A DNA stretch of 64,000 nucleotides from Minisyncoccota bacterium. GTDB taxonomy: Bacteria; Patescibacteriota; Minisyncoccia; UBA6257; GWB1-50-10. Both the position numbers and the translations under genes were made by a program. The stretch lies in NCBI GenBank assembly GCA_041664385.1, contig JBAYKY010000001.1, positions 367 to 64,366 of the forward strand, given 5' to 3'. Numbering within the stretch: the first letter of the stretch is position 1; every line of letters begins with the position of its first letter. Shown here piece by piece: positions 28,810 through 63,938 of this stretch. The notes beneath the pieces are model-generated. The model searched no databases and had not been told where the DNA came from. It saw only the letters and a program-made list of their open reading frames with translations.

Positions 28810-29948
28810 ACATATTGATAGACGTGCGATTATTGAGTAAGGGACGAATTTCTGGCATTGAAGAATACACAAAATCTCTTATTCATAGCCTTTTAAAAGA
28901 AGGAAGCAAAGATACATTTCATTTTTTCTATAATGGTTTTCGCAAAGCACCTTTTCCTACAGAATGGAAAACGGCACCCAATGCCCATCTTATTGAATGG
29001 AATATTCCTAATAAACTCCTTGACCTTACCACGCGTTTTTTAGGATGGCCCCGCGTTGAACAGATTGCGCATGTCGACCTTGTCTTCAGCCCTCATTTCA
29101 ATCTCTTGCCCGCTACTAAGCACACCAAAAGAGTAATTACGTTTCACGATCTCTCATTTCTTCATTTTCCTGAATTTTATCCATTACGAAAAAGACTTTG
29201 GCACTGGCAACAGGATTATCGTACTCAAGCAATGCGTGCCGATGCACTTATCGCGGTTTCAGAATTTACGAGACAAGACCTTATATCCACATTTCATCTA
29301 CCAGAAGAAAAAGTGCATACCGTCTATTCCGGTATCAATCCTTTTTTCTCTGAATTGCCAGAAGAAAGTCCAGAACGTGCACGCTTTGCAAAAGAAAAAA
29401 ATCTTCAGCAACCATTTCTTTTATTTACAGGAGTGCTTGAACCACGTAAAAATGTGTCAGGAATCATCCGTGCATTTAATGAGATTAAAAAAAATCCATA
29501 TCACCGTGAATTACAACTCGTTATTGTCGGAAGGAAAGGCTGGCTCTATGATACAATTTTTAGAGATGCAGCAATGTCTCCCTGGTCACGCGACATTCGT
29601 TTTTGGGGAGAGGCATCTCTTGAAGATTTAAACCTTCTTTATAATCTTGCATCAGTATTTGTATATCCATCATTTTTTGAAGGATTCGGGTTCCCACCAC
29701 TTGAAGCACAGGCATGCGGCCTCCCGGTAATTACCTCAAATCGTTCATCATTACCTGAAATTGTAGGAGAAAGCGCACTTCTCGTTGATCCTTGGAAAAC
29801 TGACGAACTCATTACTTCAATTGACCTTGTGCTCCGTGATACTACGCTCGCAAACGATCTTAAGAAACGGGGGCGAATAAACAGTACGCGATTTTCTTGG
29901 CAACAGACCGCAACACAACTTCTTGAACTTTTTCATTCGCTCATTTAA
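28806..29948 (+). CDS. Glycosyltransferase family 4
   Basis: VYPSFFEGFGFPPLEAQACGLPVITS; start overlaps the upstream GT4 stop (ATGA). Confidence 0.85.
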   Translation: MNILIDVRLLSKGRISGIEEYTKSLIHSLLKEGSKDTFHFFYNGFRKAPFPTEWKTAPNAHLIEWNIPNKLLDLTTRFLGWPRVEQIAHVDLVFSPHFNLLPATKHTKRVITFHDLSFLHFPEFYPLRKRLWHWQQDYRTQAMRADALIAVSEFTRQDLISTFHLPEEKVHTVYSGINPFFSELPEESPERARFAKEKNLQQPFLLFTGVLEPRKNVSGIIRAFNEIKKNPYHRELQLVIVGRKGWLYDTIFRDAAMSPWSRDIRFWGEASLEDLNLLYNLASVFVYPSFFEGFGFPPLEAQACGLPVITSNRSSLPEIVGESALLVDPWKTDELITSIDLVLRDTTLANDLKKRGRINSTRFSWQQTATQLLELFHSLI

Positions 29949-35293: not shown

Positions 35294-38200
35294 ATGAATA
35301 TGGAAATACCTCCAAAAAGTACAGCGACTCCAAATAAAGAAGCAGAAAAGACTCAAGAAATCATCACTCCTGAGAAACTTAAGGTTGCTGAGGTGCTTCT
35401 TGGTGATGAAAATTTTAAAATTGATGACCTTTACGAGAAATCAAAAGAAAGTAAAGAACTCGTACTAAATCAAGATAAGGCCCGAGAAAAAATGAAGGAG
35501 GTGGAATCATTCTCTCCAGAGGCGCGGATACGTGCAGAAGAAGTAATCTCAGCACGCGAAGAAAGTGCTCGGGTTTTGGAACATGCATATGAAATAAAAA
35601 AGACCGAGACAGATTCTAACTCGAAAAAACTGAAAGTATCCGATATTCTTTCAAAAGAACAGCAAGATGCAAAAGAAAAGCATGAAAATGCAGTTATTGC
35701 GCTTAAGAAAACTCTTCTTCAGGATGCGGTAATAGAATTGCGTCAGAAATATGGCGAGGGACCTGAATTTGATAAACACGTAAAGGAGATTAAAGACCCG
35801 GCTCTTGAGCACCTTCGAAGAATTTCGGTTATGGAACTTGCACGTATGAACGATGCGCGCGAGAAGGTGAGTAAAGGAAACTCAAAAATTTGGGAAGGTA
35901 TTAAAAAACCATTCGCGGCTTTTGCAAAAATAGAACCACGAGCCCTGCGCTCTGTAGTGGGTTCAAGTATTTTTACTGCCGGACTTATTGGAGGAAGTGT
36001 CGCACTTAGTATTCCAATTGCAGCTGCAGCCGCAGGATATGGAACCTATGCAGCGTATCGTATAGGCCGCGCACTTGTAGGAGGTACTATTTCTGCTTTC
36101 GTACAAAAACATTTCACAAACAAAATTGTTGAAAGTGCATATAACGTAGATACAAAGAAAGCATACGAGGATATAAAACAAAGCACAAAAGAAAGTGTTG
36201 CTAAGCAAAATGTTGCGAGCGAACTTTTAGATCTCACAAACTTAGAAGAATTAGCATCCCGAAATTTTGAAACAGATAAGCAACTTGCAGATGAGTATTC
36301 AAAAAAGATGAAGAAGGCGCGACGCCTTCATACTGCGAACGCATTTGGTTCAGGTATTATTACCGGCGCTGCAGGAGGTATGATAGGTGCAAAAGGACTC
36401 GATTTTGGCGCAGGAAAATTTCATGAGTTTACTGGTGGAGGACACACACCCGAACATATTCCTGGTGTTGTACCAAAAGCGCCTACATGGGAATCTGCCA
36501 CCGCACAAAAAGGCGATTCAGTATGGAAAGTGGTTGAGCACGACCTCGACAAAAATATTCCTGGGTTTAAGGATATGACGGAGGCTCAGAGAACATATGT
36601 CATCGATCACTATAAAGATGCGGTGGTAGCAGACCCAGAGAAATTCGGTCTCACCGATCCTAATCAAGTAAAAATCGGATGGGGCAAGGAAGTAGATAAT
36701 CTTTTTACAGATAAACAAGAACTCGCAGAAACTATTGGCGCAGCAAAAGGATTGCGACCTGAAGAAATTCAGAATATTTTGCGTACCAACGAATTAAATC
36801 GTTTACACTCTGATGGTATTAGTCATGAAGAAGTTATACGAACGGAAGTACATACACCAGAGGAAGTGCGTCCTGCATTTTCGCCAGAAGATCAACGTAT
36901 GTATAGTCAGGCAATGCAAAATTATCGCGGAGGTGCCTTTGAAAAAGGTTCCGCCGCATGGAATGCTGCGCATGCACAAGGTGAGCAATCACTTCTTGCA
37001 TTAGCACACAATCATCCAGGAGTAATGCAAAATCCTAGTTACCAAGATTTCAAATACACCGTGCGCAATATCTACGGCGAACACCTTCAAAAGGAACTTG
37101 GTGAAGGTGGCATGTTTAAATTCCTACAAAGCGCGGATCATGACGATTTGATACGTGAAACTTCAGGTCTTGCAGAAACATTTGGTTTAAAACCTCAAGA
37201 AGCACAGATGTATGCATCATACCTTGGACAGGGTCATGAACTTGATGAAAATACATTTCGTCCATTTGTGAATCCTGAAACGGGGGAGATTTCTATGCAA
37301 CAATTTGCTCGTTCAATTGGTCAATTTGGTGCAATTGCTGAGAACAATCATGATCTTCCTGATATTCCCGCTGGAAAAATGGCGTCCGCATGGGAGCCAC
37401 GCATGATTCGCGTAGGCGACAATAATTATCTCGGTCTTGTCCGCAACGCAGGAGAAGGCAAATTTGAATATTCAATAGAACCAGGTGATGTAAGTGGTGC
37501 AAGTAAGACGGGTATGGAACTAATGCTTGAACAAGGAGCTAAGCCTCTTGCACTACACGCCGAAGCCCCTATAGAAAGTGTCCACCCAATGACAATAAAG
37601 GGGCTTGAACCGAATAAAATTACCACAGAACAATTCAAAGTTGAGAAAGTAGTAATTCCTCAGGATATAGAAGATCGGGTCGCTGCTGCACAAGCAAGAC
37701 TTCCTCAAGATATAGAGCGAATGACCTATCTTTCACAAAAGAATGCATTTGATTCGGTTCAAAAGGTATCTCCATTGAATGAATCTGCCATACCGAAAAC
37801 AAATTTCAATGCTCCGCTTGAACACACAATTGTTCCAGAAATAAACGAAGCAAATTCTGAAGAAACACTCGCTCGTGTAAATGACTTTACTAACCTTTCA
37901 AAACACAATGCATTTGATCAAGTTCAAAAAATACCTACATTAAATGAATCTGTCATACCGAAAACAAATTTCAATGCTCCGCTTGAACATGTAAACGTTC
38001 AAGAAGCAATTGCATTTAAAGCAGAGAATACTGAACAGATACATGGCGCAATGACTACCATTGGAAAAGCATATGGTCTAAACCAGGATCAAACTGCAGT
38101 ATTTGAGCGTTATATTACAAATGGAGAAAAGTTAAGTCCAGAAACAATAAAAGGATATATAAACCCAGAAACAAACAGCATAAGTCCTACCAAAGTTTCT

Positions 38201-38431
38201 GGTGCTATAGAAAGTTTTAAAGAAGCCATGTGGAAAAAGGATATTCCTCAAGGAGAGTGGGAACCGAGGATGATGAAATTCCGATTCGGGAATGATTTTA
38301 CCGATCAACTCGCAATTGTGAAAAAAACAGGATCAGATTCATATGAAGTTATAGTTGGAAATCACCACCTATCTTCAGTGCCTGAAAACCAAATTCAAAA
38401 AGCAATAGCTGACGTAAAAATTATAGAATAA
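35294..38431 (+). CDS. Large orphan membrane-associated protein (1045 aa) with internal repeats
   Basis: Acidic coiled-coil-like N-terminus, hydrophobic segment around residues 215-265, C-terminal duplicated about 30-aa repeat and two WEPRM-containing modules. Confidence 0.6.
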   Translation: MNMEIPPKSTATPNKEAEKTQEIITPEKLKVAEVLLGDENFKIDDLYEKSKESKELVLNQDKAREKMKEVESFSPEARIRAEEVISAREESARVLEHAYEIKKTETDSNSKKLKVSDILSKEQQDAKEKHENAVIALKKTLLQDAVIELRQKYGEGPEFDKHVKEIKDPALEHLRRISVMELARMNDAREKVSKGNSKIWEGIKKPFAAFAKIEPRALRSVVGSSIFTAGLIGGSVALSIPIAAAAAGYGTYAAYRIGRALVGGTISAFVQKHFTNKIVESAYNVDTKKAYEDIKQSTKESVAKQNVASELLDLTNLEELASRNFETDKQLADEYSKKMKKARRLHTANAFGSGIITGAAGGMIGAKGLDFGAGKFHEFTGGGHTPEHIPGVVPKAPTWESATAQKGDSVWKVVEHDLDKNIPGFKDMTEAQRTYVIDHYKDAVVADPEKFGLTDPNQVKIGWGKEVDNLFTDKQELAETIGAAKGLRPEEIQNILRTNELNRLHSDGISHEEVIRTEVHTPEEVRPAFSPEDQRMYSQAMQNYRGGAFEKGSAAWNAAHAQGEQSLLALAHNHPGVMQNPSYQDFKYTVRNIYGEHLQKELGEGGMFKFLQSADHDDLIRETSGLAETFGLKPQEAQMYASYLGQGHELDENTFRPFVNPETGEISMQQFARSIGQFGAIAENNHDLPDIPAGKMASAWEPRMIRVGDNNYLGLVRNAGEGKFEYSIEPGDVSGASKTGMELMLEQGAKPLALHAEAPIESVHPMTIKGLEPNKITTEQFKVEKVVIPQDIEDRVAAAQARLPQDIERMTYLSQKNAFDSVQKVSPLNESAIPKTNFNAPLEHTIVPEINEANSEETLARVNDFTNLSKHNAFDQVQKIPTLNESVIPKTNFNAPLEHVNVQEAIAFKAENTEQIHGAMTTIGKAYGLNQDQTAVFERYITNGEKLSPETIKGYINPETNSISPTKVSGAIESFKEAMWKKDIPQGEWEPRMMKFRFGNDFTDQLAIVKKTGSDSYEVIVGNHHLSSVPENQIQKAIADVKIIE

Positions 38432-56987: not shown

Positions 56988-57719
56988 TTATGAGCCGTTC
57001 AAGTTTTTTGCTTCGAGCGTTGAGAGAATTTGCTCGGCAATAGTGCTTACCATTTCCTGTTCACCAAGGGTCGTAGTGTTCAAAAGATGGAGATTCGGAT
57101 TGGTGGGAGAAAGTACCTTATACGCCGCCTCATAGCGCGAAACAAGCGTTGCTATGGTTTTCGGATTCGATGTTTCTCCCGCTTTCTGCGAGAGCGCAAT
57201 ACGTAGTTCGCGCTGCATCGCATCTTCGGGATTACACACCATGAAATAGGCAGCATCAATTTCATTAATCCAGAGTCGACTCAAGAAAAAATTCTGATAA
57301 AGCTCTTTTTCTCTTGGGAGAAGTTTTTGTTTCTCTTCCCAATACATCATCCATACATAGGCGTCGAAAATGGCACGGTCAAAGATAACGAGGTCATATT
57401 GATGCCCTCGGCTTAAGTCGAGCAATAATGAAAGTGCATAGAGTCCGGTACGTATGTTATATACGGGTGTATCCCGGGTAATATGTCGAATTACTTCAGC
57501 ACCTTCTTGTGGTCGCCATACACGAAATCCCATACGACGAAAGAACTTATCAAGTTCCGTAATCGTGGTGGTCTTTCCTGCAGACGGGGAACCGGTTATT
57601 TCGATAAAGAACGGACGAGGCATAAATTCCTTATCGTATCGAATATTACTTTTCAAATACTGAAGCAAACGCTTTGCTTTTACTTCAAAGAGTGCTTCTT
57701 GATCTTGCGTAATGGTCAT
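56988..57719 (-). CDS. P-loop nucleoside/nucleotide kinase-like protein (deoxynucleoside-kinase-like)
   Basis: Walker A ITGSPSAGKTT; DRAIFDAYVW resembles the dNK ERS/DR motif region. Confidence 0.5.
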   Translation of the reverse strand: MTITQDQEALFEVKAKRLLQYLKSNIRYDKEFMPRPFFIEITGSPSAGKTTTITELDKFFRRMGFRVWRPQEGAEVIRHITRDTPVYNIRTGLYALSLLLDLSRGHQYDLVIFDRAIFDAYVWMMYWEEKQKLLPREKELYQNFFLSRLWINEIDAAYFMVCNPEDAMQRELRIALSQKAGETSNPKTIATLVSRYEAAYKVLSPTNPNLHLLNTTTLGEQEMVSTIAEQILSTLEAKNLNGS

Positions 57720-57770
57720 ACGACCTCCTTTTGTTGTACTAGTAATGAACTATTGATTAGAATAGAAGAA

Positions 57771-58349
57771 ATGAGGAAAAGAAGTCAATCAAATATAAAA
57801 ATAGGACTTGATATGGATGGGGTACTTATTGACCACACAGGAATTCGCATTAAGCTCGCTAAAGAATATGGCTTTGCCTTAATTCCCAAAGACACTCCTT
57901 CGGATATATTGCGCACTATCCTTCCCGATAAAGAGCGGTGGGCAATTCAAAATACAATTTACAATGATCCACTCGTTTCGCTTGAGGCGCCTCTCATTAA
58001 AAACGTTGAAGAAAGTTTAAAGCGACTAACAGAATTAGAAATTCCATTTTTTCTTATTTCTCGCAGAAAGGATGCGAATCTTGCAATGCGACTCCTTGAA
58101 GCACGTGGTATCTGGCCGCGCTATTTTAATCCTGAAAACACACACTTTGTTATAACTCCTGAGGATAAAGACACGGAGGCAATAAAGCTCGGGATTACAC
58201 ACTATGTGGACGATGAGACAAAAGTACTTAAAGCACTCAACTCCGTCCCACATAAAATACTTTTTGATCCCTACGATGCTCAAGAAGAGGGGGATTATGT
58301 ACGGGCTCACTCATGGGAAGATGTTATGCAACATTTTCTAAACCAATAA
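57771..58349 (+). CDS. HAD-superfamily 5'(3')-deoxyribonucleotidase-like hydrolase (NT5C-like)
   Basis: KIGLDMDGVLIDHT matches the NT5C-type DxDGV motif; the ORF portion upstream of 57771 overlaps the divergent kinase and is rejected. Confidence 0.6.
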   Translation: MRKRSQSNIKIGLDMDGVLIDHTGIRIKLAKEYGFALIPKDTPSDILRTILPDKERWAIQNTIYNDPLVSLEAPLIKNVEESLKRLTELEIPFFLISRRKDANLAMRLLEARGIWPRYFNPENTHFVITPEDKDTEAIKLGITHYVDDETKVLKALNSVPHKILFDPYDAQEEGDYVRAHSWEDVMQHFLNQ

Positions 58350-59519: not shown

Positions 59520-60134
59520 TTAACTTAAAATTTTTATAAGTGCGTCGGTAACGGGCTTCAGCTCAAGAAGTTCTTCTTCAGGCGTATGCTGCAGTGATGG
59601 TTTATTCGTTATTTTAGAAATATAAAGAGCGCGGACTGGCATCTGGATATGTGATTTACCAAATATGTGATCTGTCAAGATAATTTCACGTCGCGATTCG
59701 GAAGTGCGAAGTGTGCCATCAGGATTTAATAACGCAAAAGCCTCAACCCATGCCGCATTTACACGACCACCGTGCTTCTTTGCAACACCCTGCCAAAATT
59801 TTAATAATGCTTCTGCAATTTCTTCTTGAGAAAGATTTTCTTTGTATATTCCCTCAAGCGCTGTCCTTTTGGGGGCTTCTACTAATCCTTCGCCTTCAAC
59901 CCAAAAACCAGTATCATTTGCAAGGATTGGCATGTCAGTTTTTCCAAAATAGGCACGCACCTTAATCTCCGCATTTTCAGCTAACGTGCTACCACTTTCT
60001 TCAACATCAAAATTTTCCAACCCTACATCACTCGGAATATGAATTTCAAAATCTAAACCAGTAGAAGCAATAAGATTTTTAAATCGTTCTACCTTCCCTT
60101 GGTTATATGTTCCGAGAAGTACCTCCTTTTTCAT
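59520..60134 (-). CDS. Non-canonical purine NTP pyrophosphatase (RdgB/Ham1 family)
   Basis: LLGTYNQGKVERFKNL...ENAEIKVRAYF...ANDTGFWVEGEG matches Ham1 motifs; start chosen at MKKEVLL. Confidence 0.75.
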   Translation of the reverse strand: MKKEVLLGTYNQGKVERFKNLIASTGLDFEIHIPSDVGLENFDVEESGSTLAENAEIKVRAYFGKTDMPILANDTGFWVEGEGLVEAPKRTALEGIYKENLSQEEIAEALLKFWQGVAKKHGGRVNAAWVEAFALLNPDGTLRTSESRREIILTDHIFGKSHIQMPVRALYISKITNKPSLQHTPEEELLELKPVTDALIKILS

Positions 60135-60135
60135 A

Positions 60136-60459
60136 TTATTTTTCTTCCTTAACTCCCCATTGCCAACGAGGTTTCTCACCGGTTTTATAACAGATAACGA
60201 GAAGTACTATAATTGCCGCAATTATCTTTCCAAAAAACCAGTAGAAATTTGCATCGATCGGCCCCATATTTGGTTCTAAATCAAGGCTGTTCCACAATAC
60301 AAACCCCAAGAAAAACGCGATTACGAGCCACCCTTGCCAAGTTACGGGAGTCCAGCCCCAACCATAGAGCTTTCGTTTAAACCAAAAATTCTCTGGGTTA
60401 TTCTTTAAATAAGAAATGTATTCTTTAAACATATGATAAGTATAATTGAAAATCTTCAA
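60136..60459 (-). CDS. Hypothetical membrane protein
   Basis: Two TM helices, Trp-rich. Confidence 0.4.
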   Translation of the reverse strand: MKIFNYTYHMFKEYISYLKNNPENFWFKRKLYGWGWTPVTWQGWLVIAFFLGFVLWNSLDLEPNMGPIDANFYWFFGKIIAAIIVLLVICYKTGEKPRWQWGVKEEK

Positions 60460-61464: not shown

Positions 61465-63093
61465 TTAAGATTGGAGTATTTTTGCTTTTCTTAGAATCGC
61501 ATGAACCGAGAGAGGGTAATTATGTACTTTTGTGAGCGCCTTCTTTGCCTGCTCCTTGGTAATAAACCCCACAGTCACCTCGCGCGCGAGGCGTGTGGCA
61601 TCAGGGTGAAATCCTAGGAGACGTCTTGCCTTGTTTTCCGCCGCTCGTGCAAATAAGCACGAATTCGCATTCGATTCAATAAGAAACTCACCCTTAGGAA
61701 CTTTCCACCCCAACTCTTCGAGTATCTTTCGCGTGTCATTTATTCTCCGCTGTAAAAGAAAGGGGAGATGAACGATATAAACAGGAGGCTTATTTTTGAA
61801 TGGCTGCAATTTTCTGATGGCAGAAAAAACGAATTTCTTTGATTTGCTATCTTGACTCAAGCCCGCCCACTCGTTGATGCCAAGTACAACTACACTCACT
61901 TCATTTCGTATTGCTTCACCATAATAGGCTCGCACCACCAACCGCCTGCATAATTGGCATGTCCTCACAAAAGGAATACTATGTGCGCATTTTATGGAGT
62001 AATGTCTTCGTCCTTCTATATACCATTTGCGGAATTTCTCTTTCAATTCTTGTGAATCGCTTTCGTTATAGAGTGCTGCGGTCTTTTCGAAACATTTGCG
62101 GTCAACGGTCCGCGCATACTTCCTTATATCTATCCGCTGATGATCTACACCTAACTCTTTAGCAACTTGTGAGGACCTCGAAAATATATGATGCGGATAG
62201 TAGCCAGTATCGAAGGTGAACGAAAGGGGAGTAAAACCCATTTTTTTGATTTGATAGAGCGTCGCAGTACTATCCTTCCCACCCGAAATGCCTACCATAA
62301 CATCATACTTACCCCGCCCGCTTCTTATAAGGGACTTCAGAAATGCGAGTTCTTTGATAAGCGGCTTCTTGCTGAAGTTTTCTTCGTACCTCTCGCACGT
62401 CTCACAAAGTCCCGTGCTACCAATCGTACTTGAGAGATTCGTACTGGTATTCACACAATGAGCACACTCTCTTACTTCTATGAGAGCTTTTATTTTGGTG
62501 AATATCTCCTTTTTTGTCTGAAGCGCGGTATTGAACGATAAGTGAGCAATCTTCTCAACCTTATTCGTGGAAAAAAGACGCTCTTCGATATGGCGCTCTT
62601 TTTCTGCGGCCTTAAGAGAGAAATCTTCCCGCTTTGCCACTCGCTTACTCAAATCCTTCTCGGGAGTCTTCAAATATACCACGAGATACCCATTCTTCTT
62701 GAAGAATGTGGAATTATGATACCCACGTATGCCCGCAATAAGTACAAATTTTTTCGCATATCGTTTCTCGTGTATAAAAGTGAGTGTTTTTGCAATAACC
62801 GAAGGAGAATAACGATTCTTAAGATAAGTAAAAAATACACGCGCCTTTTCGCGTGGAATGGGGGAGCCCGATTTCTTGGTTTTTATTTTATTGATAACCT
62901 GAATAAACTTTTTCTCTTCACGAGGAAGACTATCTTTTATGGAAAAAGCAGGATGAACGACTGCCTGCGAGGCCTCAATATAGCTCGCCTTGGGAAATGC
63001 TTCGAGGAGCCACTTTGCTATCGTAGTCTTGCCACTCCCAGGAGCACCAAATATGACTATTCCCTTGTATGTATAAAATCCATCATCCTTCAT
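61465..63093 (-). CDS. Fusion protein: P-loop kinase-like domain + Cys4 zinc ribbon + PP-loop (SGGKDS) ATP-pyrophosphatase domain
   Basis: N-terminal GAPGSGKTTIAKWL; middle CAHC...CETCERY; C-terminal MVGISGGKDSTATL PP-loop motif. Confidence 0.6.
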   Translation of the reverse strand: MKDDGFYTYKGIVIFGAPGSGKTTIAKWLLEAFPKASYIEASQAVVHPAFSIKDSLPREEKKFIQVINKIKTKKSGSPIPREKARVFFTYLKNRYSPSVIAKTLTFIHEKRYAKKFVLIAGIRGYHNSTFFKKNGYLVVYLKTPEKDLSKRVAKREDFSLKAAEKERHIEERLFSTNKVEKIAHLSFNTALQTKKEIFTKIKALIEVRECAHCVNTSTNLSSTIGSTGLCETCERYEENFSKKPLIKELAFLKSLIRSGRGKYDVMVGISGGKDSTATLYQIKKMGFTPLSFTFDTGYYPHHIFSRSSQVAKELGVDHQRIDIRKYARTVDRKCFEKTAALYNESDSQELKEKFRKWYIEGRRHYSIKCAHSIPFVRTCQLCRRLVVRAYYGEAIRNEVSVVVLGINEWAGLSQDSKSKKFVFSAIRKLQPFKNKPPVYIVHLPFLLQRRINDTRKILEELGWKVPKGEFLIESNANSCLFARAAENKARRLLGFHPDATRLAREVTVGFITKEQAKKALTKVHNYPLSVHAILRKAKILQS

Positions 63094-63167: not shown

Positions 63168-63938
63168 TTATTTGTGCTTCTGATTCTTCAGGAACTGGTC
63201 GAGAGAATCCGGATCAACACTCTGGAGACGATTACTCTCCAAAAGAGTCGTCCGCTTCTCGGCTTTATCCACGCGCGTAACTTCTTTCTTCACCACTTTG
63301 AGATTGGCGAGGTGCTCCGCTTGCACGTTGCTCTCATCGCTCAAAGTAATGCCTTCAATATGGAAGGCGCGGCAGGTGATTATCTTCTCCTTCGTGTCTT
63401 GGAACCGTATCGTAACGCGGCTTCCATCACGCATGAGAGGAACCTCAGCAGTCGCATTCGTGTACGCAACTTCGAATAATTTCGGTACACTCTTCATTTT
63501 AAAGGTGAAGACTTGTTGCTGTGCGCGGAATACAGGCTGCCCGGTAAACTCGATTATCCCCGAAAGGATTACCTCGGGAATCTCACCGCCTGCCGGAGCA
63601 ATACTTGCTTCGCCCGAACTACTTATGATCGCACGATAATTCGAAAGTGCTTCTTCGAATGTCGCACCGCGTGCCGCCAACTGTACATTGTTGATTGAGA
63701 CAAGTGAAACACCCTTGAATTGATGTTCATACATCATAGGCACCACATACGTAAGTGTGCCATAGATGTTATAGGGTGTAAGATCAGTTGGTTCATAGCC
63801 TGTGAAGTTTGACCATAAGGATTTTGCCGCATCATATGCTCTATTTTCAGTTACGCCAGCCACATGAACGAAAGTACTGACTCCCGTTCGTGCATCGGTA
63901 AGCATAAATCCGGTAAGCGCATCATCCTTGCTGTTCAT
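63168..63938 (-). CDS. Hypothetical protein (256 aa)
   Basis: ORF only. Confidence 0.45.
   Translation of the reverse strand: MNSKDDALTGFMLTDARTGVSTFVHVAGVTENRAYDAAKSLWSNFTGYEPTDLTPYNIYGTLTYVVPMMYEHQFKGVSLVSINNVQLAARGATFEEALSNYRAIISSSGEASIAPAGGEIPEVILSGIIEFTGQPVFRAQQQVFTFKMKSVPKLFEVAYTNATAEVPLMRDGSRVTIRFQDTKEKIITCRAFHIEGITLSDESNVQAEHLANLKVVKKEVTRVDKAEKRTTLLESNRLQSVDPDSLDQFLKNQKHK

Follow-up and report, generated by a model that had tools for sequence, protein, structure and literature searches.

CPR bacteria and DPANN archaea account for a substantial part of microbial diversity and salvage their nucleotides; the CPR bacteria are generally described as having no de novo pathway yielding AICAR. 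Purine-nucleotide interconversion in both groups is poorly documented, and a literature search on their purA/purB status returned nothing usable. Among the PP-loop enzymes, NadE, QueC and LarE adenylate carboxylates, GuaA adenylates C2 of XMP and has a glutaminase partner, and YcfA, a tetradecamer of the 6-thioguanine pathway, adenylates C6 of GTP and uses L-cysteine with a C-S lyase. In TtuA, as in the N-acetyl sugar amidotransferases, a Cys4 ribbon upstream of the PP-loop motif is standard. The substrates of IMP cyclohydrolase (IMPCH) and ITPase are free purine nucleotides. The N-acetyl sugar amidotransferase (NASAT) structure 8WEX contains a Zn-bound tetracysteine and the sequence 122-SGGKDS-127 (PMC10607449). 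A triad of cysteines (CxxC + C) near the PP-loop site is the signature of the [4Fe-4S] sulfur insertases TtuA, LarE-Tm and CtaC (PMC9283937, PMC6772006), and stand-alone IMPCH (PurJ) normally works beside PurV or PurP, either of which formylates AICAR (PMC6486802).

The stretch of DNA analysed here (the window, 64,000 nucleotides) encodes a real, previously uncharacterised two-module enzyme in which a nucleotide kinase is fused to an ATP-pyrophosphatase.

Two modules in one open reading frame

The ORF (61465..63093, minus strand) extends from an ATG start to a TAA stop and specifies 542 amino acids. An identical protein from a Candidatus Paceibacterota MAG (MFA6364854.1) bears the automatic name "QueC", and close homologs are called AAA ATPase, shikimate kinase, cytidylate kinase or TilS; the public names of the family are thus mutually contradictory. 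Full-length homologs, about 525–556 amino acids long, number more than 100, and the kinase + PP-loop architecture is found in 51 of 75 non-redundant metagenomic and genomic groups. A scan of genome contigs with a profile of the full alignment was swamped by the generic SGGKDS pattern and gave two true members; metagenome contigs were scanned with an alignment of the C-terminal region only. Conservation extends over the ultra-small CPR bacteria and the DPANN archaea. The family is unusually basic (median pI 9.94, net charge approximately +52), its IMPCH partners are equally so, and the genomes are basic overall; the high pI was left aside as evidence for RNA binding.

The N-terminal module (aa 1-205; 62479..63093, minus) is a UPF0200/AdkA-like P-loop nucleotide kinase. 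It possesses both a Walker A sequence of the form GxxGxGK[ST] (GAPGSGKTT, aa 16-24; 63022..63048, minus) and the NMP-kinase fold. The invariant residues are G16, G21, K22, E40, R81, G121, R123, R151 and E170; in the Walker A motif G16, G21 and K22, and T or S at position 23, occur in 36/36 diverse homologs. In fold class the module resembles the UPF0200/AdkA-like protein SSO1041 (3LW7) and the NMP kinases (CMP kinase, adenylate kinase). SKI is the sole kinase-type profile above its cutoff, by a small margin (23.3 vs 22.1) and over the C-terminal part of SKI only. The other curated kinase profiles fell below theirs: AAA_18 (27.6 vs 29.4), AAA_33 (25.2 vs 27), PRK08356 (24.6 vs 189), cyt_kin_arch (25 vs 102) and adk (17 vs 168). 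To our knowledge the function of UPF0200 is not established, and nothing usable on it was found in the literature.

The rest of the protein is the PP-loop module. A first-pass annotation had described a three-part fusion of kinase, zinc ribbon and PP-loop domain. The joining of a kinase to a PP-loop enzyme stands; the separate ribbon does not, since the ribbon, the PP-loop and the 200 residues that complete the C-terminus align as one homologous unit with NASAT-like proteins (hhalign; residues 205-540, probability 100%, E 2.6e-44). Judged from this alignment, the Cys4 ribbon (aa 206-245; 62359..62478, minus) belongs to the PP-loop module, whose N-terminal element it forms, and is not a separately fused domain. 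Its invariant cysteines, C210/C213 (CAHC, 62455-62466) and C230/C233 (CETC, 62395-62406), align with the Cys4 of the NASAT-like proteins and form a predicted Zn site matching the tetracysteine of 8WEX. The N-terminal half of the Rossmann-like core follows (aa 246-345; 62059..62358, minus), with SGGKDS (aa 270-275; 62269-62286, minus) after the first beta-strand, as in the PP-loop ATP pyrophosphatase (adenine nucleotide alpha-hydrolase) superfamily. The Walker A, Cys4 and SGGKDS motifs picked out in the first-pass annotation are all present and cannot be fortuitous, since their residues do not vary across 36 diverse homologs.

Residues 323-378 (61960..62127, minus) constitute a region, delimited by an hhalign gap, secondary structure and invariant columns, which carries the motif EGRRHYSxKCxH, helices 329-343 and 348-363 and many invariant Arg, Tyr and His residues. 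From aa 323 to approximately 345 it is an insertion missing from the NASAT-like comparison set; the rest, up to aa 378, aligns with gaps (hhalign). The C-terminal half of the module (aa 346-542; 61468..62058, minus; motifs RTCQLCRR, GINEW, ESNxNSCL and HPDxTRLxREVT) had gone without mention in the earlier annotation. It is the most conserved region, with 56 of 197 positions invariant in the 36 homologs, and no aligned member, archaea included, falls below 57% identity to the window protein. Searched alone against PDB sequences it gave no match; by hhalign it is homologous to the C-half of the NASAT-like proteins.

The architecture had also been thought foreign to the characterised PP-loop families, and the curated profiles agree; nor do they make the protein an ordinary member of a known family that merely has a cryptic N-terminal domain. 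The best match is TIGR03573 (NASAT; E 1.7e-18), which at 67.2 bits is far short of its cutoff of 203.2 and covers profile positions 3-144 of 344 only. Values for TtuA (NF049949, 18 vs 450), TtcA (17.3 vs 272), MnmA (16.6 vs 284) and LarE (TIGR00268, 19.2 vs 150) were lower still. Membership of QueC, TilS, NadE, MnmA, ThiI and LarE was rejected, the scores being far below the curated cutoffs and confined to the generic PP-loop half. Only Pfam QueC was noted above its cutoff for this module, marginally and over the N-terminal half alone (28.7 bits vs GA 22). By PADLOC match and defence-island context the protein is not one of the anti-phage PP-loop proteins (QatC, Cap9); the PADLOC models gave nothing beyond P-loop noise. 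No description of a kinase + PP-loop fusion was found in the literature.

A putative tri-cysteine metal site

Three further cysteines are invariant in 36/36 homologs. C379 and C382 (C379-Q-L-C382, 61948..61959, minus) form a CxxC at the N-terminus of helix 378-396, and C479, within ESNANSC (61657..61659, minus), lies at the N-terminus of helix 480-493. All three align with a Cys triad of the NASAT-like proteins (hhalign), and the CxxC of that set aligns in turn with the CxxC of the [4Fe-4S] LarE 8cnz; 8WEX is without it. The window protein therefore carries the three conserved cysteines (CxxC + C) that mark [4Fe-4S] PP-loop sulfurtransferases, and on the strength of these alignments C379, C382 and C479 are a putative tri-Cys metal or [4Fe-4S] site, with C379 and C382 as the first two ligands. 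Since at least one of the triad-bearing NASAT-like proteins reaches the TIGR03573 cutoff (best E 1.8e-68, approximately 230 bits estimated), the triad alone is no proof of sulfur chemistry. C369 and H371 are conserved in 34/36 homologs and could complete a Zn site instead of an Fe-S cluster.

Gene associations and proposed function

The ORF heads a putative transcription unit comprising itself, YceG, a 107-amino acid membrane protein, a Ham1/ITPase-like gene and EEP; the string is flanked by terminator-like hairpins at 63151-63132 and 58682-58659. The Ham1/ITPase-like gene (59520..60179, minus; Pfam Ham1p_like 42.5 bits, with NCBIfam matches) is the third gene downstream, on the same strand. 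Rfam searches for riboswitches or leaders (ZTP, purine, PRPP etc.) gave none at E ≤ 1 in the 56-64 kb part of the window, where there were sub-threshold chance matches only, and none at the gathering threshold across 13 related loci.

Elsewhere in the family IMPCH is a recurrent fusion partner or neighbour of the orthologous catalytic module, and ITPase is linked to it as well. Archaeal relatives possess a genuine N-terminal PurH-type IMPCH domain (200-226 bits; motifs GIKLIHP, NFYPF, DIGGP and AAKN kept) and the PP-loop module at the C-terminus, while in other lineages a stand-alone purJ abuts the PP-loop gene. The IMPCH linkage is concentrated in the kinase-less archaeal forms, near which no separate kinase gene was seen; most kinase-fused members, the window gene included, have no IMPCH neighbour. 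Ham1 neighbours recur in four non-redundant groups. Besides these two, no recurrent partner was found in the 75 groups (no hpt, purA/B, guaA/B, purP, GATase or ThiS/TtuB-like gene), and NifS/NifU stand beside the PP-loop gene in two groups only, below recurrence.

The first-pass annotation had suggested an RNA- or nucleotide-modifying enzyme. The protein is most probably a nucleotide-transforming one; RNA is not the best-supported target, because the recurrent fusion partners and neighbours of the catalytic module, IMPCH and ITPase, act on free purine nucleotides. The IMPCH fusion and adjacency point to an undescribed purine-nucleotide step and not to RNA or sugar modification. The exchange of kinase and IMPCH domains, together with the ITPase linkage, narrows the function to a short list of IMP reactions, and from these gene associations we infer that the substrate of the module is probably IMP or a free purine nucleotide directly related to it. 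The best overall explanation, which we advance tentatively, is a bifunctional purine-nucleotide enzyme conserved in CPR bacteria and DPANN archaea.

A specific route from IMP to AMP (and ADP) can be proposed with similar reserve. The C-terminal module, made up of Zn ribbon, SGGKDS, tri-Cys metal site and C-half, would bind ATP and IMP and move AMP to the C6 lactam oxygen of IMP with release of PPi. The AMP would then be displaced by a nucleophile, preferably ammonia, the sum being IMP + NH3 + ATP → AMP + AMP + PPi with adenylosuccinate synthetase/lyase bypassed. The AdkA-like kinase would phosphorylate AMP, both product and by-product, to ADP; alternatively, it might make IMP from inosine. In other lineages the fused or adjacent IMPCH (FAICAR to IMP) or the neighbouring ITPase (ITP to IMP) would supply the module. 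It is possible, if somewhat doubtful, that the PP-loop module is accordingly a new ATP- and ammonia-dependent "AMP synthase", working via 6-O-adenylyl-IMP and replacing, in CPR/DPANN, the otherwise universal pair of steps through adenylosuccinate synthetase/lyase; GMP synthase, acting on XMP, would be its analogue. Several observations run against the IMP to AMP route: the substrate is assigned through guilt by association, with most kinase-fused members lacking the IMPCH neighbour; the basic pI is more typical of RNA-binding proteins; and the PP-loop step could instead precede IMPCH, since stand-alone IMPCH normally has an AICAR-formylating partner.

The choice of nucleophile leads to the first alternative. 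The triad favours sulfur over nitrogen, because it marks sulfur insertases and is absent from the amidotransferase 8WEX, and we know of no ammonia-using PP-loop enzyme that requires a tri-Cys site. In this reading the PP-loop module would adenylate the C6 carbonyl of IMP or GMP, and a tri-Cys [4Fe-4S] cluster would present sulfide on its unique iron; replacement of the oxygen would yield 6-thio-IMP or 6-thio-GMP. Phosphorylation of the thionucleotide would fall to the kinase, and ITPase would guard the producer against thio-ITP. We consider this unlikely. Thiopurine nucleotides are antimetabolites with no housekeeping role that we are aware of, which sits poorly with a family so widespread and so strongly conserved among minimal genomes. 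The scarcity of NifS/NifU neighbours, the triad in NASAT-like protein(s) reaching the TIGR03573 cutoff and the Zn site that C369/H371 could complete also weigh against it.

In the archaeal fusions IMPCH precedes the PP-loop module, which is the domain order of PurH with AICARFT replaced; this raises the possibility of a folate-independent FAICAR synthetase. Adenylation of formate by the PP-loop module, or its activation of AICAR, would lead to formylation of AICAR and stand in for the AICAR transformylase half of PurH; IMPCH would close the ring and the kinase would make AICAR from its riboside or recycle AMP. PurJ is otherwise always partnered by PurV or PurP (PMC6486802), and carboxylate adenylation is common in PP-loop enzymes. 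This reading is nonetheless decidedly unlikely: most carriers are CPR bacteria, generally described as without the AICAR-making pathway, the ±10 kb around the IMPCH fusions contain no further pur genes, and the nearest relatives (NASAT, CtaC, TtuA) activate amide or lactam oxygens and not small carboxylates. It leaves the Ham1/ITPase association unexplained, and the kinase role is contrived.

A TtuA/NcsA-like tRNA (or rRNA) thiolase, its P-loop domain binding RNA or acting as an RNA kinase as in PSTK/Kti12, is very unlikely. It would account for neither the recurrent fusion with, or adjacency to, IMPCH nor the ITPase link, the TtuA and MnmA profile scores are negligible, the protein lacks THUMP, PUA and any other RNA-binding domain, and sulfur-carrier (TtuB/ThiS-like) neighbours do not recur.

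An ordinary N-acetyl sugar amidotransferase of the PseA/WbpG/WbuX type, making acetamidino sugars for surface glycans with a sugar- or nucleotide-kinase attached, might be read from the top profile match, from the full-length homology to NASAT-like proteins, from 8WEX as the top structural match of the C-module and from the glycosyltransferase genes at 27655-29948 in the window. It is highly improbable in view of the partial, sub-cutoff TIGR03573 match, the family's own insertion and distinct, far more conserved C-half, the missing HisH/HisF-like partner, the absence of any recurrent glycan-biosynthesis neighbour in the 75 groups and, again, the IMPCH and ITPase links. Lastly, that the ORF is QueC, as the identical NCBI protein is named, or two genes joined by a frameshift or assembly artefact, is refuted and has a negligible probability, as the Pfam QueC match is confined to the generic PP-loop half (profile positions 3-106 of 210), TIGR00364 reaches 25.8 bits where 150.3 are required, the names of close homologs disagree, and the fusion recurs in 51 independent groups from many samples as well as in the full-length homologs.

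If the IMP to AMP reading is true, this is a new enzyme of central metabolism bypassing PurA/PurB, and an "AMP synthase" would have the first tri-Cys metal site in an N-transfer PP-loop enzyme; if thiolation is true, a thiopurine-nucleotide synthase is widespread in episymbionts. Under either reading free purine nucleotides would join the substrates of the NASAT/TtuA branch of PP-loop enzymes, and a spreading mis-annotation would be corrected.

Comparison with known systems

The window protein shares with NASAT (PseA/WbpG/WbuX/LfnA; TIGR03573; 8WEX) a Zn-type tetracysteine upstream of the PP-loop. It differs from 8WEX in its low identity (17%), the insertion within aa ~323-378 and the CxxC...C triad, and from NASAT in general in its N-terminal kinase (or IMPCH) partner, the lack of a glycan-gene context, where NASAT genes sit in O-antigen or flagellin-glycan clusters, and its CPR/DPANN distribution. 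The triad is held in common with the [4Fe-4S] insertases (TtuA/TtcA/NcsA, Fe-S LarE, CtaC), from which cluster binding by the window protein may be inferred, whereas it scores far below the cutoffs of these families; their substrates are tRNA, nicotinic-acid mononucleotide or carrier-protein-bound peptides, and none is fused to a kinase or IMPCH.

The proposed mechanism resembles those of YcfA and the ATP-pyrophosphatase domain of GuaA, in which an adenylated ring carbonyl of a free purine nucleotide exchanges O for S or N. Both are without Zn ribbon and Cys triad, and the likeness drawn here is one of mechanism. With QueC the protein shares the N-terminal half of the PP-loop domain; the C-terminal half is unrelated and queuosine-pathway neighbours are absent. 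The archaeal relatives, like PurH, are two-domain proteins with a PurH-type IMPCH at the N-terminus, but carry the PP-loop module at the C-terminus where PurH has AICARFT; in the window protein the kinase takes the place of IMPCH.

The kinase–PP-loop fusion

The ORF at 61465..63093 (-) starts with ATG, ends with TAA and specifies a 542-aa protein containing the three elements which the first-pass annotation had read in it: a P-loop (GAPGSGKTT, aa 16-24), a Cys4 ribbon (CxxC pairs at aa 210-213 and 230-233) and a PP-loop (SGGKDS, aa 270-275). Across 36 diverse aligned homologs every residue of these motifs is invariant. A protein search revealed >100 full-length homologs (525-556 aa, 46-81% identity) from many independent metagenomes and from Patescibacteria MAGs (Paceibacterota, Sungbacteria, Harrisonbacteria, Yanofskybacteria, Vogelbacteria). 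Some carry archaeal labels (Micrarchaeaceae, Woesearchaeota or Nanoarchaeia), and the archaeal origin of some members is backed by gene context (NAC, DUF424 and TruD at locus L003; archaeal SRP RNA at L067; PAC2 at L104). Since independent homologs and 51 of 75 non-redundant loci carry the same fusion, an assembly artefact and the joining of two genes by a frameshift, which had been raised as an alternative, are both ruled out. One member (P0132, 878 aa) is extended by a further N-terminal domain of ~340 aa, which precedes its P-loop kinase and PP-loop modules and matches protein-kinase-like/APH/Bud32 models weakly.

The suspicion that this is not the standard architecture of a known PP-loop family was borne out, all curated profiles falling below cutoff except Pfam QueC (28.7, GA 22) and Pfam SKI (23.3, cutoff 22.1), which passed marginally and over part of the model only. 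TIGR03573, the profile for N-acetyl sugar amidotransferase (NASAT), gave 67 bits against a cutoff of 203, at profile positions 3-144 only, and the kinase profiles AAA_18 (27.6 vs 29.4) and PRK08356 (24.6 vs 189) were likewise under cutoff. QueC (TIGR00364, 26 vs 150), TtuA (18 vs 450), MnmA (17 vs 284), TilS (15 vs 94) and NadE (21 vs 64) were rejected as identities for the protein, and PADLOC models for anti-phage defence gave P-loop noise only. GenBank names the identical protein (MFA6364854.1) “7-cyano-7-deazaguanine synthase”; close homologs go under “AAA family ATPase”, “shikimate kinase”, “cytidylate kinase” or “TilS”. There is no support for any of these labels.

Gene neighbourhood and partner exchange

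Exact-protein look-ups (12), a genome scan and a metagenome scan with a C-terminal-only alignment yielded 91 family loci. After ORF calling and removal of redundancy 75 groups were left, and clustering of every neighbour up to 5 kb away revealed no universally conserved operon around the family gene. The commonest recurrent neighbour (8 groups) is a ~200-aa protein matching NCBIfam purH at 199-226 bits over profile positions 1-~196 of 510, that is, the IMP cyclohydrolase (IMPCH) part only; this stand-alone domain is named PurJ or PurH2 in the literature (PMC6486802). As a rule its gene and the PP-loop gene are same-strand neighbours (position -1 or +1) that touch or overlap (L021, L072, L075, L089, L090, L101), and the family genes linked to purJ are mostly of the kinase-less, stand-alone form, which accounts for 11 groups. 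On a 936-kb archaeal contig (Ga0315279_10000002; L067, 4990-6606) a single protein carries IMPCH N-terminal to the ribbon and PP-loop module, in the exact place which the kinase occupies in the window protein. A search with this protein retrieved at least five 90%-identity clusters that share the fusion, at 61-99% identity (P0269, P0270, P0122, P0271, P0272), including archaeal P0122 (L104:10001-11590) and P0272 (L105:1437-3113); L066 looks like a disrupted copy. The layout mimics that of PurH, with the AICAR transformylase half replaced by the ribbon and PP-loop module. The PP-loop module of these fusions is 56-66% identical to that of kinase-fused proteins (60% to the window protein), so the catalytic module is orthologous and only the partner is swapped; kinase and IMPCH behave as near-alternative partners. 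Neither the superfamily nor the two folds are new. The novelty lies in a coherent and strongly conserved family of CPR and DPANN members in which kinase–PP-loop alternates with IMPCH–PP-loop, no description of which was found in the searchable literature.

The next functionally annotated recurrent neighbour is Ham1/ITPase (4 groups), which in the complete Sungiibacteriota genome CP066690.1 overlaps the start of the family gene. In the window a Ham1-like gene (59520-60179) is the third gene downstream of the target, on its strand, and belongs to a tightly spaced string that runs target, YceG, 107-aa membrane protein, Ham1-like, EEP. Terminator-like hairpins at 63151-63132 (strong; 8 bp stem with 6 GC pairs, then a T-run) and 58682-58659 flank this string; their number is not above chance, and as its bounds they are only suggestive. 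The first separates the target from a 256-aa upstream ORF (63168-63938, -) that has no Pfam match.

An NT5C-like 5'-nucleotidase ORF (57483-58349, +), which probably starts further downstream since its Pfam match spans aa 105-283 only, is overlapped by a convergent AAA_28 P-loop gene (56988-57719, -), and these form with Ham1-like and EEP a small cluster of nucleotide-handling genes not conserved in other loci. The largest window gene (35294-38431, +; 1,045 aa, pI 5.6) matches no Pfam family at E≤1e-5. A helix-turn-helix protein of the XRE type (68 aa), encoded at -1 on the same strand in five related non-redundant groups (L029, L030, L036, L039, L051), may be a local regulator. A ~85-aa GIY-YIG-type protein is seen at variable positions in four groups (L006, L038, L050, L054/L056); rather than a functional partner it is probably a mobile homing-endonuclease-like element. 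In CP066690.1 (L001:9700-12600) a dense array of >20 tRNA genes follows the family gene at a distance of ~2 kb; one of them barely clears the gathering score of Rfam tRNA-Sec (48 vs 47 bits) and is probably a long-variable-arm tRNA instead of a genuine tRNA-Sec. No riboswitch was found at 56-64 kb of the window or in 13 related loci.

A candidate reaction at O6 of IMP

IMP cyclohydrolase converts FAICAR, and ITPase converts ITP, to IMP; these are the only enzyme families recurrently adjacent or fused to the PP-loop module. The NASAT/TtuA branch of PP-loop enzymes works by adenylating an amide or lactam oxygen, which is then swapped for nitrogen or sulfur. IMP contains just one oxygen of this kind, O6, and the amination of XMP by GMP synthase proceeds through the same kind of adenylation. 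From the recurrence of IMP-producing partners, the chemistry of the branch, the single O6 and the precedents of YcfA and GMP synthase, we infer that the module would adenylate O6 of IMP. Ammonia would be the favoured nucleophile and AMP the product, since a widely conserved gene would thereby gain a housekeeping role in salvage-dependent organisms; AMP as both product and by-product would make a fused AMP-type kinase sensible; a linear path FAICAR/ITP → IMP → AMP → ADP fits the gene trio at L021; and we know of no housekeeping function for thiopurine nucleotides. That the enzyme acts on IMP, or on a free purine nucleotide directly related to it, is reasonably probable; the specific conversion of IMP to AMP is a more tentative proposal. 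A new substrate class for the branch is probable. As judged from sequence, the function narrows to a handful of reactions that can be tested directly, and one of these, if true, would represent a new enzyme of central metabolism.

The cysteine triad and competing reactions

C379, C382 and C479, in the C-terminal half of the PP-loop module, are invariant in 36/36 homologs, C369 and H371 being kept in 34/36. One helix N-terminus of the target holds the CxxC (C379/C382) and another C479. In alignment the triad pairs with the only other invariant cysteines of a NASAT-like comparison set homologous to the module, the CxxC of which, in a search against PDB sequences, aligns to that of [4Fe-4S] LarE 8cnz; the solved NASAT 8wex is without Cys at either triad position (HPFQPFMIGQK and SIDDKI). 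CxxC...C residues are experimentally established ligands of a tri-coordinated [4Fe-4S] cluster in Thermotoga LarE, in TtuA and relatives, and in the thioamide synthetase CtaC, where the ligands are C154, C157 and C284 (PMC9283937, PMC6772006). The triad points to a metal or Fe-S site close to the active centre, for which amination would not account.

The main rival, which we consider unlikely, is sulfur insertion by the PP-loop module. It ranks first among the rivals because, among PP-loop enzymes of known function, only those that transfer sulfur have so far shown the invariant tri-Cys motif. The triad alone is no proof of sulfur chemistry in this family, because at least one triad-bearing NASAT-like member matches TIGR03573 with an E-value of 1.8e-68, estimated to be above the 203-bit cutoff. 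In one lineage (L020) the family gene is immediately preceded by NifS-NifU-NifU-ferredoxin-reductase genes, and in another (L001) a cysteine-desulfurase-type gene lies nearby; among the 75 groups sulfur-gene linkage does not recur beyond these two. The upstream run of the Paceibacteria-like L020 (968-4903) encodes NifS, NifU-N, NifU-C, ferredoxin and a Pyr_redox_2 reductase on the same strand; acetyl-CoA synthetase and pyruvate:ferredoxin oxidoreductase are encoded downstream on the opposite strand. NASAT-like ribbon and PP-loop segments are also embedded in giant proteins of 1,200-3,500 aa (P0205, P0212, P0218, P0251, P0260 and others) or fused to an acyl-carrier-protein-like domain (P0248); there they probably serve, much like CtaC, as tailoring modules of the NRPS/PKS type for amidine or thioamide formation.

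A folate-independent AICAR formylase, catalyzing the step before IMPCH, would account for the PurH-like domain order of the IMPCH fusions, and PurJ is normally paired with PurV or PurP (PMC6486802); this second rival fits poorly with the CPR distribution and with the ITPase link, and is improbable. A tRNA thiolase, a shade less probable again, would suit the TtuA-like layout of the module and the strong basic charge across the family (median pI 9.94, net +52, vs local backgrounds of 7.2-9.3) but leaves the IMPCH fusions unexplained; the extreme basicity is shared by the PurJ partners of the family enzyme. A genuine sugar amidotransferase has no contextual support and is very improbable.

The adenylation of IMP, which we prefer, would resemble that carried out by YcfA, a PP-loop enzyme adenylating the C6=O of a free purine nucleotide (PMC12494993). 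Together with GMP synthase it provides a precedent for the ring-carbonyl adenylation proposed for the PP-loop module.
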